Below are positions 9,894-11,309 of a stretch of DNA of 14,562 nt, piece by piece. Numbering within the stretch: the stretch's first letter is position 1; the number at the start of each line of letters is the position of its first letter. Location of the stretch: UHGV virus genome UHGV-0177146; one strand, written 5' to 3'. Source of the stretch: a virus. Both the position numbers and the translations under genes were made by a program. The notes beneath the pieces are model-generated. The model made no database searches, had not been told where the DNA came from, and saw nothing but the letters and a program-made list of their open reading frames with translations.

Positions 9894-11309
9894 ATGAGCG
9901 AATTATTTAAACATGCGCACCTTCATGCAGGTCGAACTGAAAATGGTGCTGTAAACCATACTTCATCAATGTCTGCTCTTGTAGACTTTTACAAAGCTGC
10001 TGGTTCTAGCCGTAGCAATGTAGAAATCTTACCAGACTTGTTCTACAAAGCTTTGCATGATGATGTTGATGTTGCAGTTCGTATTTTACTGCATATGCGA
10101 GATGTACGAGAAGGTATGGGTGAGCGTAAAGCTTTCCGAACTGTTTTACTTCAAGCGATTGAAGATAAAGTTTTAGAGCCTACACAGGTTCTTCGCATTA
10201 TGGATAAGATTGCAGAGCTTGGTCGCTTTGATGACTTCAAAATCTTTGTAGGTACTCGTTTCGAGACAGATGCCTTCAAACATTTAGAAGCAGCACTACT
10301 AGACCCTGCAACAGCAGGTTTAGCAGCTAAGTGGTTACCACGAGTAAAACCACGTCACAAACAGTTTGTAAAACGTTTCTGTAAGTTTGCAAACTTGAGC
10401 GAGAAAGAGTATCGCACACTGTTATCTGCACTATCTGATACAGTTGAACAAAAAATCTCGGCTAATGAGTTTGGTAAGATTGACTACAGTAAGATTCCTT
10501 CACTTGCTGCTGCACGTTATCAAAAACTCTTTAACCGTAAAGATGGAGAACGCTACAAAGCTTACGTTGAGTCATTATCAAAGGGTGAGACTAAGATTAA
10601 TGCTGGTGCTGTTTATCCATACGATGTGATTAAATCTATCAAGTATGGTAATGCAGATGTTGCTAATGAGCAGTGGAAAGCACTACCAAACTGGATGGCA
10701 GAAGGTGAAAACATCTTGTGTATGACTGATGTTTCAAGCTCAATGTCTTGGGTGAATCTCGGCTCAATTACTGCCCTTGATATTGGTGTATCACTTGCCT
10801 TGTATGTAGCAGAACGCAATACAGGTTGCTTTAAGAACGAGTTAATGGTTTATTCAACAAACCCTCATTTCATCGAACTGAGTGGCGATTTAAAGAACCG
10901 TCACCGTCAGGTAATGCGTCATGTTGAATATGGTTCAACCAACTTACAAGCAGCTTTTGACCGCATTCTTGAGACAGGCAAGAGAAACAACTTAACTCAG
11001 AAAGATATGCCAAGTAAGCTTATCATCTTCTCTGATATGGAGTTCAATCAGGTTGATGGTGCAAATGGTCGTACAAACTTTGAAGCAATTCGTAGTAAGT
11101 ACAAAAAAGCTGGATACGAAATGCCACAACTGGTATTCTGGTACTTAGCAAACCGTAGTGGTACTTGCGAAGTATCTGTTAAGGATAACGGTGTAGCAAT
11201 GGTATCAGGGTTCTCTCCAGCCACTTTAAAAGCCCTGCTTGGTGGTGAGAAGTTTGACCCAATCAGCGTAATGCTCAAAGCAGTAATGATTGACCGTTAC
11301 ATCTGGTAA
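9894..11309 (+). CDS. von Willebrand factor A (vWA) domain protein with helical N-terminal domain; candidate Ro60/Rsr (TROVE-like) homologue
   Basis: C-terminal half carries a MIDAS-type DxSxS motif (CMTDVSSSMS, nt 10728-10742), a GSTNL loop and an IIFSDMEF motif typical of vWA folds. The N-terminal ~270 aa are helical and contain GRTENGAV, reminiscent of the GxEGGT motif I recall near the N-terminus of Ro60/Rsr. TROVE assignment is inference. Confidence 0.85.
   Translation: MSELFKHAHLHAGRTENGAVNHTSSMSALVDFYKAAGSSRSNVEILPDLFYKALHDDVDVAVRILLHMRDVREGMGERKAFRTVLLQAIEDKVLEPTQVLRIMDKIAELGRFDDFKIFVGTRFETDAFKHLEAALLDPATAGLAAKWLPRVKPRHKQFVKRFCKFANLSEKEYRTLLSALSDTVEQKISANEFGKIDYSKIPSLAAARYQKLFNRKDGERYKAYVESLSKGETKINAGAVYPYDVIKSIKYGNADVANEQWKALPNWMAEGENILCMTDVSSSMSWVNLGSITALDIGVSLALYVAERNTGCFKNELMVYSTNPHFIELSGDLKNRHRQVMRHVEYGSTNLQAAFDRILETGKRNNLTQKDMPSKLIIFSDMEFNQVDGANGRTNFEAIRSKYKKAGYEMPQLVFWYLANRSGTCEVSVKDNGVAMVSGFSPATLKALLGGEKFDPISVMLKAVMIDRYIW

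Follow-up and report, generated by a model that had tools for sequence, protein, structure and literature searches.

Ro60, a major autoantigen, and Y RNAs form particles that have been conserved all the way from bacteria to humans; in this family Y RNA binds on the outer surface of the protein, and the central cavity takes up single-stranded RNA ends. A canonical phage case has been described in Thermus phage phiLo, whose Ro60 (phiRo60) is accompanied by two Y-like RNAs, Yrl1 and Yrl2, and binds the host polynucleotide phosphorylase (PMC12135203; PDB 9l5y). Chen et al., in surveying the Y RNAs of bacteria and phages, restricted their search to genomes with an annotated TROVE protein, and defined YrlA by a 5′ GNCGAAN0-1G motif together with V, T, acceptor-like and D arms (PMC4201824). 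Here we consider a 14,562-nucleotide stretch (hereafter the window, meaning the whole stretch of DNA analysed) of the virus genome UHGV-0177146, in which a gene for a divergent Ro60-like protein stands just ahead of a tRNA array with structured elements between the tRNAs. The window comes from a Felixounavirus, that is a Felix O1-like myovirus of Escherichia coli and Salmonella; positions 9400–11700 are 96–97% identical to phages XTG1, ASO1B and AYO145A and are matched by 252 phage records. We consider it likely that the gene product is a Ro60-family protein that forms particles with four, possibly five, phage Y-like RNAs encoded among these downstream tRNAs.

The protein has an ortholog with a reported phenotype. 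Gp130 (bas63_0130) of the Felixounavirus Bas63 (Escherichia phage JohannRWettstein) is 98% identical to it over all 471 residues (460/471), and the synteny is the same, with a DUF5681 gene, then gp130, then tRNA-Pro/Glu/Met. The PhageMaP preprint noted that gp130 is structurally Ro60-like and lies just upstream of tRNAs, and found that its deletion leads to tiny Bas63 plaques on a strain carrying Ppl, a defence composed of an ATPase plus a PHP-domain protein, an effect reversed by complementation; concerning RNAs, it went no further than the speculation that Y RNAs might be among the annotated tRNAs (10.1101/2024.10.10.617714). Our candidates are instead unannotated elements between the tRNAs, and they are present in Bas63 as well (positions 22066–22912 of its record). 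Judged by sequence, the protein is thus an ortholog of the anti-Ppl protein gp130, while the anti-Ppl activity itself is that reported in the preprint. The claim at the level of the protein is already known from the Bas63 ortholog and from database annotation. No publication describing the RNAs was found among open-access papers and preprints on DUF2828, CAGCAA or Y RNAs, and Felixounavirus or Bas63, and the novelty appears to lie in the candidate RNA partners and in the recognition module conserved among them.

The original prediction, made from the DNA letters alone, had read the open reading frame (ORF) at 9894–11309 as a 471-residue vWA (von Willebrand factor A)-domain protein of Ro60/Rsr-like architecture, encoded upstream of an island of tRNAs and structured RNAs. 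The ORF proves to be a real gene, read on the plus strand from an ATG into 471 residues, and the dense island, with 19 tRNAs, begins 166 nucleotides downstream. The product matches phrog_850 (‘RNA-binding protein’) over its full length (E 1.2e-182), as well as Pfam families DUF7788 (residues 275–455; E 4.6e-43, 147.5 bits against a cut-off of 27.1) and DUF2828 (E 1.8e-28, 100 bits against a cut-off of 29), and public records label the same gene variously ‘RNA-binding protein’, ‘vWFA protein’, ‘DUF2828 family protein’ or ‘hypothetical protein’. The protein belongs to a large family: of 8000 candidates scored, 2552 proteins come in at E ≤ 0.001, and a tblastn search recovers full-length homologs from 710 of the 50,697 phage records searched, including phages of Vibrio, Aeromonas, Campylobacter, Listeria, Staphylococcus, Enterococcus and Bacillus and the cluster L Mycobacterium phages, in which the homologs are annotated ‘Ro-like RNA binding protein’. 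The vWA signature that had been seen in the C-terminal half is indeed there (DVSSS at residues 279–283, GSTNL at 347–351, IIFSDMEF at 377–384) and constitutes a complete metal-ion-dependent adhesion site (MIDAS), with D279, S281, S283, T349, S380 and D381 invariant in a 45-sequence family alignment. Likewise, the N-terminal domain of about 270 residues is predicted to be all-helical, as had been proposed, except for a short N-terminal beta hairpin, and it contains many invariant arginines and lysines (R40, R69, R72, R78, R111, K146). A suggested equivalence between the N-terminal GRTENGAV and the GSEGGT motif of Ro60, by contrast, found no support: although the family keeps T15, N17 and G18 without variation, the N-terminal 235 residues gave no signal against Ro60 in a profile–profile (HHalign) comparison of N-terminal halves. 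Other searches were little more informative, with weak matches to VWA_2 (in related members) and to the ‘Ro60 vWA domain’ PF25045 (in 10 of 45 relatives), chance matches only when phmmer and a family-profile hmmsearch were run against PDB sequences, and nothing from NCBIfam or PADLOC.

The relation to Ro60 emerges from the predicted fold. An AlphaFold2 model made from the family alignment is confident (predicted local distance difference test score 89, predicted template modelling score 0.88) and shows a horseshoe of HEAT-like repeats closed into a ring by the C-terminal vWA domain, the Ro60-like architecture that the original prediction had proposed to look for by structure prediction. When the model was compared with the PDB using Foldseek, the best 11 matches were all Ro60, Rsr or TROVE proteins, aligned over the full length, and in this modelled comparison the helical domain and its placement relative to the vWA domain supply about half of the structural signal. 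At the level of sequence, using reference Ro60 and Rsr sequences drawn from PDB alignments, HHalign matched residues 233–443 to Ro60 316–527 with 80% probability (E 1.3e-5, the Ro60 profile comprising three sequences only); the matched region spans the Ro60 ‘ARIHPF’ helix, aligned to an invariant ‘NAGAVYPYD’, and all MIDAS motifs, the MIDAS residues falling on DVSASM, GGTDC and FTDNET of Ro60. An N-terminal domain of some unrelated family, such as that of a vWA partner of an ATPase, did not come to light, nor is an ATPase encoded nearby. With the full-length Foldseek matches, the invariant MIDAS and the orthology to Bas63 gp130, the Ro60-like reading of the protein is supported, and the gene most likely encodes a divergent Ro60-family protein, with a predicted ring, from a phage-rich DUF2828/DUF7788 clade.

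The candidate RNA partners share a common base. In all four folds (Table 1) a 4-bp outer helix is followed by an AGA/G internal loop, a 7-bp helix of the form AGACCNN/NNGGUCU, a spacer of three nucleotides and the sequence CAGCAA, which is invariant in an alignment of the four elements and begins five bases past the 5′ motif. The 5′ motif CAGAAGACC and the 3′ motif GGTCTGG each occur in four exact copies, all on the plus strand, paired one to one, and located in tRNA gaps; allowing up to one mismatch, CAGAAGACC has 11 matches (including the four exact ones), a count reached by no shuffle, and four copies of GGTCTGG were reached in 6 of 200 shuffles. The first two elements start 4–5 nucleotides after the preceding tRNA and end 8–9 nucleotides before the following one, spacers which suggest that the RNAs may be co-transcribed with the tRNAs and released by tRNA-processing enzymes. 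In the fourth element the basal module carries further arms in the order known from YrlA, namely a small V hairpin, a T-arm (GAAGGUUCGAUUCCUUC), an acceptor-like hairpin and a D-arm-like hairpin (GUGUAAUGGUAGCAC). A possible fifth RNA, at 12448–12594, is built differently: a helix of 24 bp closes it, and its inner hairpin, CAGAC-CUUAAGCAA-GUCUG, resembles a miniature CAGCAA module; it is kept with compensatory changes in a related locus (L083, 8275–8420; z −4.76). On the opposite strand, a predicted 85-residue ORF (12286–12543, minus strand; phrog_14433) runs antisense to the third and fourth elements and is called a ‘hypothetical protein’ in some relatives, while the annotation of Bas63 has two other small ORFs there; the 85-residue call is probably spurious and covers non-coding RNA.

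The module is retained well beyond this genome, and across phages of distant hosts it is common to the DUF2828-type clade as a whole. In close Felixounaviruses the four elements are kept with variable interiors, and the order of DUF5681 gene, Ro-like gene and tRNA island is maintained in contigs whose Ro-like proteins are 63%, 55%, 53% and 48% identical to ours. The tRNA gaps of these four contigs hold 3–6 elements each of the same layout, with helix sequences that are different yet complementary (for example AGUAUC/GAUACU, GGACUGU/ACAGUCC and AGAGCAC/GUGCUCU), and overall the module persists, with other helix sequences, in relatives at 28–63% protein identity. We scanned 86 sequences (approximately 1.06 Mb: 80 viral contigs recovered through the protein, three close-homolog contigs, two annotated Felixounavirus records and the window), with loci reaching 6 kb to each side of the gene, for the pattern N-G-N5, a 3-nucleotide spacer and CAGCA, followed by the complementary 7-mer and G; the insert within the basal module is variable, at 30–250 nucleotides. 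The rule was kept strict, as looser patterns often matched both strands, and the opposite strand and shuffled sequences served as controls. Perfect matches numbered 134 on the strand of the gene, compared with three on the opposite strand and 0–3 per shuffle; they comprise 61 distinct helix sequences, occur at least once in 64 of the 86 loci, and lie within 1 kb of the gene in 103 cases (77%). To avoid circularity, we also anchored on the 5′ motif alone and then sought an exact 7-nucleotide complement within 300 nucleotides: such a complement was present for 89 of 190 anchors on the strand of the gene and for none of the 53 on the other strand, where chance would give approximately 1.7% per anchor. 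Individual phages illustrate the range of arrangements, with three tandem copies after gp55 in Mycobacterium phage Faith1, three copies before the gene in Listeria phage LP-064, two before the gene in the Campylobacter phage NCTC12673, three after the gene in Staphylococcus phage BE22 and two before the gene in Enterococcus phage 113.

The tRNA-like domain also recurs and covaries. A T-arm is present in 14 of 106 non-redundant elements. RNAalifold applied to 16 T-arm elements predicted the basal helix together with the T-arm and some of the acceptor-like stem, and compensatory changes occur at 13 of the 14 predicted pairs. In Enterococcus phage 113, the Rfam YrlA model (RF02553) gives sub-threshold matches of 45.9 and 34.4 bits (gathering score 69) on the tRNA-like parts of the elements, and does not fit their basal stems. 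From these observations it is very likely, as far as sequence comparison can tell, that the downstream structured RNAs are the partners of the Ro60-like protein.

Further features were observed at some of the distant loci. In Listeria phage LP-064, an RtcB-like ligase gene lies 1.3 kb downstream of the Ro-like gene, a pairing that echoes the rsr-yrlBA-rtcBA locus of Salmonella, and an element resembling ROOL RNA (locus L087, 1429–1980; 87.4 bits, E 2e-16, gathering score 99.1) occurs among tRNAs approximately 1 kb upstream of the DUF2828-type gene. A short form of the module (31–41 nucleotides) directly precedes the ribosome-binding site of the Ro-like gene in many distant phages, and consists of a 7-bp stem, a loop of barely more than NNN-CAGCAA, then G, then AGG or GAGG (L013 5952–5987, L014 1764–1796, L009 5954–5987, L016 2859–2891, L029 5950–5986, L035 5903–5938, L052 5906–5946, L058 5907–5944, L071 2150–2190). 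The position of this hairpin suggests translational autoregulation; no such hairpin lies upstream of the gene in the window. One group of short elements next to the Ro-like gene (loci L017, L019, L021, L024, L026, L027, L032 and L073) has an A/U-rich loop with two or three AGCAA repeats (CAGCAA...AAGCAA...AGCAA), a hint that a single RNA may offer the single-stranded recognition motif in more than one copy.

We propose the following mechanism. The protein, predicted to be a horseshoe of HEAT-like helices that is closed by the vWA domain at its C terminus, where the MIDAS is intact, would assemble with the four, possibly five, Y-like RNAs into ribonucleoprotein particles. Each RNA is predicted to pair its 5′ and 3′ ends into the conserved module, one of them adding a YrlA-like, tRNA-like domain, and the RNAs would be co-transcribed with the tRNAs and freed by tRNA-processing nucleases. 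By analogy with the Ro60/Rsr–Y RNA systems, the bound RNA may tether or gate the ring, and the particle might bind, protect or hand over RNAs such as tRNAs, or sequester host nucleases and defence factors during infection; tRNA mimicry may also play a part.

Several observations weigh against this proposal. The protein has no match to Pfam TROVE (PF05731) at E values up to 1, nor do any of the 45 family members at E values up to 10. Rfam identified no Y RNA or YrlA in the window, YrlA remaining without a match at E values up to 5, and only tRNAs were found there and in 11 related loci. The single-sequence folding z-scores of the four RNAs are modest (−1.3 to −2.3), and the module lacks the canonical Ro-binding motifs GGUCCGA of metazoa and GNCGAAN0-1G of YrlA/YrlB (PMC4201824), the 5′ strand of the Felix type (RCAGAAG) having a partial likeness to GNCGAAG that is lost in distant relatives. 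Binding of the RNAs by the protein, and likewise their expression, are predictions from nucleotide and protein sequence. Finally, gp130 alone, supplied from a plasmid or inserted in T7, rescues T7 on the Ppl strain, with plating even above that of the no-defence control (10.1101/2024.10.10.617714), so that this particular activity may do without the Y-like RNAs of the phage.

This last result invites an alternative in which the fold is Ro60-like but the protein acts by itself as a direct inhibitor of Ppl or of host factors, for example through its MIDAS face, and the RNAs are irrelevant to its main function. Consistent with such autonomy, overexpression of LeBron gp53, the homolog from cluster L, is by itself toxic in M. 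smegmatis (PMC13148394). However, the rescue by gp130 alone could involve host RNAs, and the module adjoins the gene on the same strand in phages of Proteobacteria, Firmicutes, Actinobacteria and Campylobacter whose proteins are only 28–45% identical, a linkage that is hard to explain unless there is a functional tie. We therefore regard a protein acting without its RNAs as improbable, if deserving of attention.

A second alternative concerns the elements rather than the protein: they could be processing or punctuation signals, attenuators or terminators of the tRNA operon. Within the window this has some appeal, as the elements lie between same-strand tRNAs with spacers of 4–9 nucleotides, and the segment between the second and third of them is rich in hairpins. 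The wider distribution of the module is at odds with it. In Faith1 the module flanks the Ro-like gene in a 7.4-kb locus that contains no annotated tRNA, in BE22 the nearest annotated tRNA is approximately 1.4 kb beyond the three elements, and several loci have a short copy immediately ahead of the gene's ribosome-binding site; moreover, the concentration of perfect matches within 1 kb of the gene was obtained with loci spanning 6 kb on each side. As the module accompanies the gene also at loci without an adjoining annotated tRNA, we reject operon punctuation, to which we give very little credence. Least credible of all is a reading of the protein as a vWA co-chaperone or adaptor that serves an AAA+ (MoxR-type) ATPase, or else as a factor in structure or assembly, with no more than a superficial likeness to Ro60: MIDAS vWA domains are common as partners of MoxR ATPases, and the N-terminal domain modelled alone matches many unrelated HEAT/ARM proteins, but a MoxR partner was rejected as no gene for an AAA+ MoxR ATPase adjoins, the neighbours being DUF5681, small proteins of no assigned function, an endolysin, an Ig-like tail protein and tRNAs.

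If protein and RNAs do form particles, a broader hypothesis can be offered, tentatively, since we doubt that all of its parts will hold. The DUF2828/DUF7788 proteins might represent a large phage branch of Ro60 with its own class of Y RNA, whose hallmarks would be a covarying helix of 7 bp, a 3′ G and CAGCAA in single-stranded form, with a tRNA-mimic domain in some members; the particle, and not the protein by itself, could be a widespread tool for RNA protection or repair or a decoy for host nucleases and defences such as Ppl, and the leader hairpins could autoregulate translation. The roles of Ro60–Y RNA particles are poorly understood beyond a few model species, and the phage homologs are widespread (see above). 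A conserved candidate RNA ligand offers a testable mechanism for the counter-defence activity of a family with a validated anti-Ppl ortholog, and the module provides a means of annotating such RNAs in phage genomes at large, which at present overlook them or have dubious ORFs called on top of them. It also makes these proteins a natural comparison for how Ro60-type rings may recognize RNA through another motif.

Table 1. Features of the Ro60-like gene and the tRNA/Y-like RNA array in the window (UHGV-0177146).
Feature	Position	Strand	Remarks
DUF5681 / phrog_4114 gene, 123 residues, function not assigned	9441–9812	+	Neighbour on the 5′ side of the Ro-like gene, conserved among Ounavirinae-like phages
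Sigma-70-like promoter TTGACA-18-TAAAGT before the Ro-like gene	9825–9854	+	Phage AYO145A has an annotated promoter at this site
Ro60-like RNA-binding protein gene, 471 residues	9894–11309	+	DUF2828 + DUF7788, PHROG 850; ortholog of Bas63 gp130
N-terminal helical domain (HEAT-like, TROVE-like), residues 1–270	9894–10703	+	
C-terminal vWA domain, residues 275–455	10716–11258	+	
MIDAS codons	10728–10742; 10938–10940; 11034–11036	+	D279/S281/S283; T349; D381
Terminator-like hairpin 3′ of the Ro-like gene	11320–11351	+	Overlapped by a promoter-like site, 11328–11356
Second promoter-like site, ahead of the tRNA/Y-like RNA array	11419–11448	+	
Array of 19 tRNA genes	11475–14473	+	Y-like RNAs embedded
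Y-like RNA 1, between tRNA-Glu and tRNA-Met	11641–11719	+	Outer UGAC/GUCA, loop AGA/G, inner AGACCAA/UUGGUCU, UUG-CAGCAA
Y-like RNA 2, between tRNA-Met and tRNA-Asn	11808–11873	+	UUGC/GCAA, AGA/G, AGACCGU/ACGGUCU, AUU-CAGCAA
Y-like RNA 3	12222–12304	+	GAGC/GCUC, AGA/G, AGACCAA/UUGGUCU, AUU-CAGCAA
Y-like RNA 4, YrlA-like	12312–12449	+	Same basal module plus tRNA-like hairpins
Possible fifth associated structured RNA, 147 nucleotides, between Y-like RNA 4 and tRNA-Lys	12448–12594	+	Minimum free energy −47.9 kcal/mol, z −5.76

Beyond the features listed in Table 1, the DUF5681 gene, which has an N-terminal GQFKKGQSGNPSGRPKGS motif, is constantly found upstream in Ounavirinae-like phages, even where the Ro-like proteins are 53–63% identical. 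Several other structured or promoter-like regions were observed in the array. In the 247-nucleotide gap after tRNA-Ile there are weak, sub-threshold Rfam matches to permuted transfer-messenger RNA (tmRNA; 29.6 bits) and to tmRNA (14.3 bits) (12771–13076, plus strand), and a strong promoter-like site (11 of 12 matches) lies at 12845–12873. Further along, at 13296–13378 (plus strand), a tRNA-like cloverleaf combines an acceptor stem of 8 bp with a T-arm, an anticodon-loop-like CCUCCAAAACC and GCCA at its 3′ end. ARAGORN does not call this cloverleaf and Rfam matches it weakly as tRNA-Sec (23 bits); its sequence is kept in three related loci (L083, L084, L085). The gap between tRNA-Thr and tRNA-Val holds a long imperfect hairpin (14143–14238, plus strand; minimum free energy −30 kcal/mol, z −3.2), which includes CUGAAGACC, one mismatch from the 5′ motif of the Y-like RNAs, and has no CAGCAA.

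How, then, does this locus compare with the described systems? With the Ro60/Rsr–Y RNA systems of vertebrates (Ro60), Deinococcus (Rsr–Yrn1) and Salmonella and Mycobacterium (Rsr–YrlA/YrlB) it shares a predicted helical-repeat ring closed by a MIDAS vWA domain, small RNAs nearby on the strand of the gene whose ends are paired into a stem, and, in one RNA, a T-arm, acceptor-like stem and D-arm in the order of YrlA. In contrast to those systems, the phage protein lacks a Pfam TROVE match, is 11–15% identical to them and is approximately 65 residues shorter (471 versus 535–538); the RNA module, with an A-U/G-C helix base, a 3′ G and CAGCAA, differs from GGUCCGA and GNCGAAN0-1G; and there are four or five RNA copies here, inside a tRNA array. 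PhiRo60 of phiLo differs in turn from our protein, having been deposited as a TROVE domain-containing protein with RNAs chosen by a CGAA motif. The genes of cluster L (Faith1 gp55, LeBron gp53) and of Listeria, Staphylococcus, Enterococcus, Campylobacter and Vibrio phages belong to the same family (28–45% full-length identity, tblastn), and RNAs with the same CAGCAA stems adjoin the gene; these phages are of other lineages and hosts, however, and carry the RNAs in tandem upstream or downstream rather than interleaved with tRNAs, and for their RNAs too no published description was found. Since both the TROVE signature and the canonical Y RNA motif are missing while the architecture is shared, we class the locus as a variant of the Ro60–Y RNA system rather than as a plain member of it.

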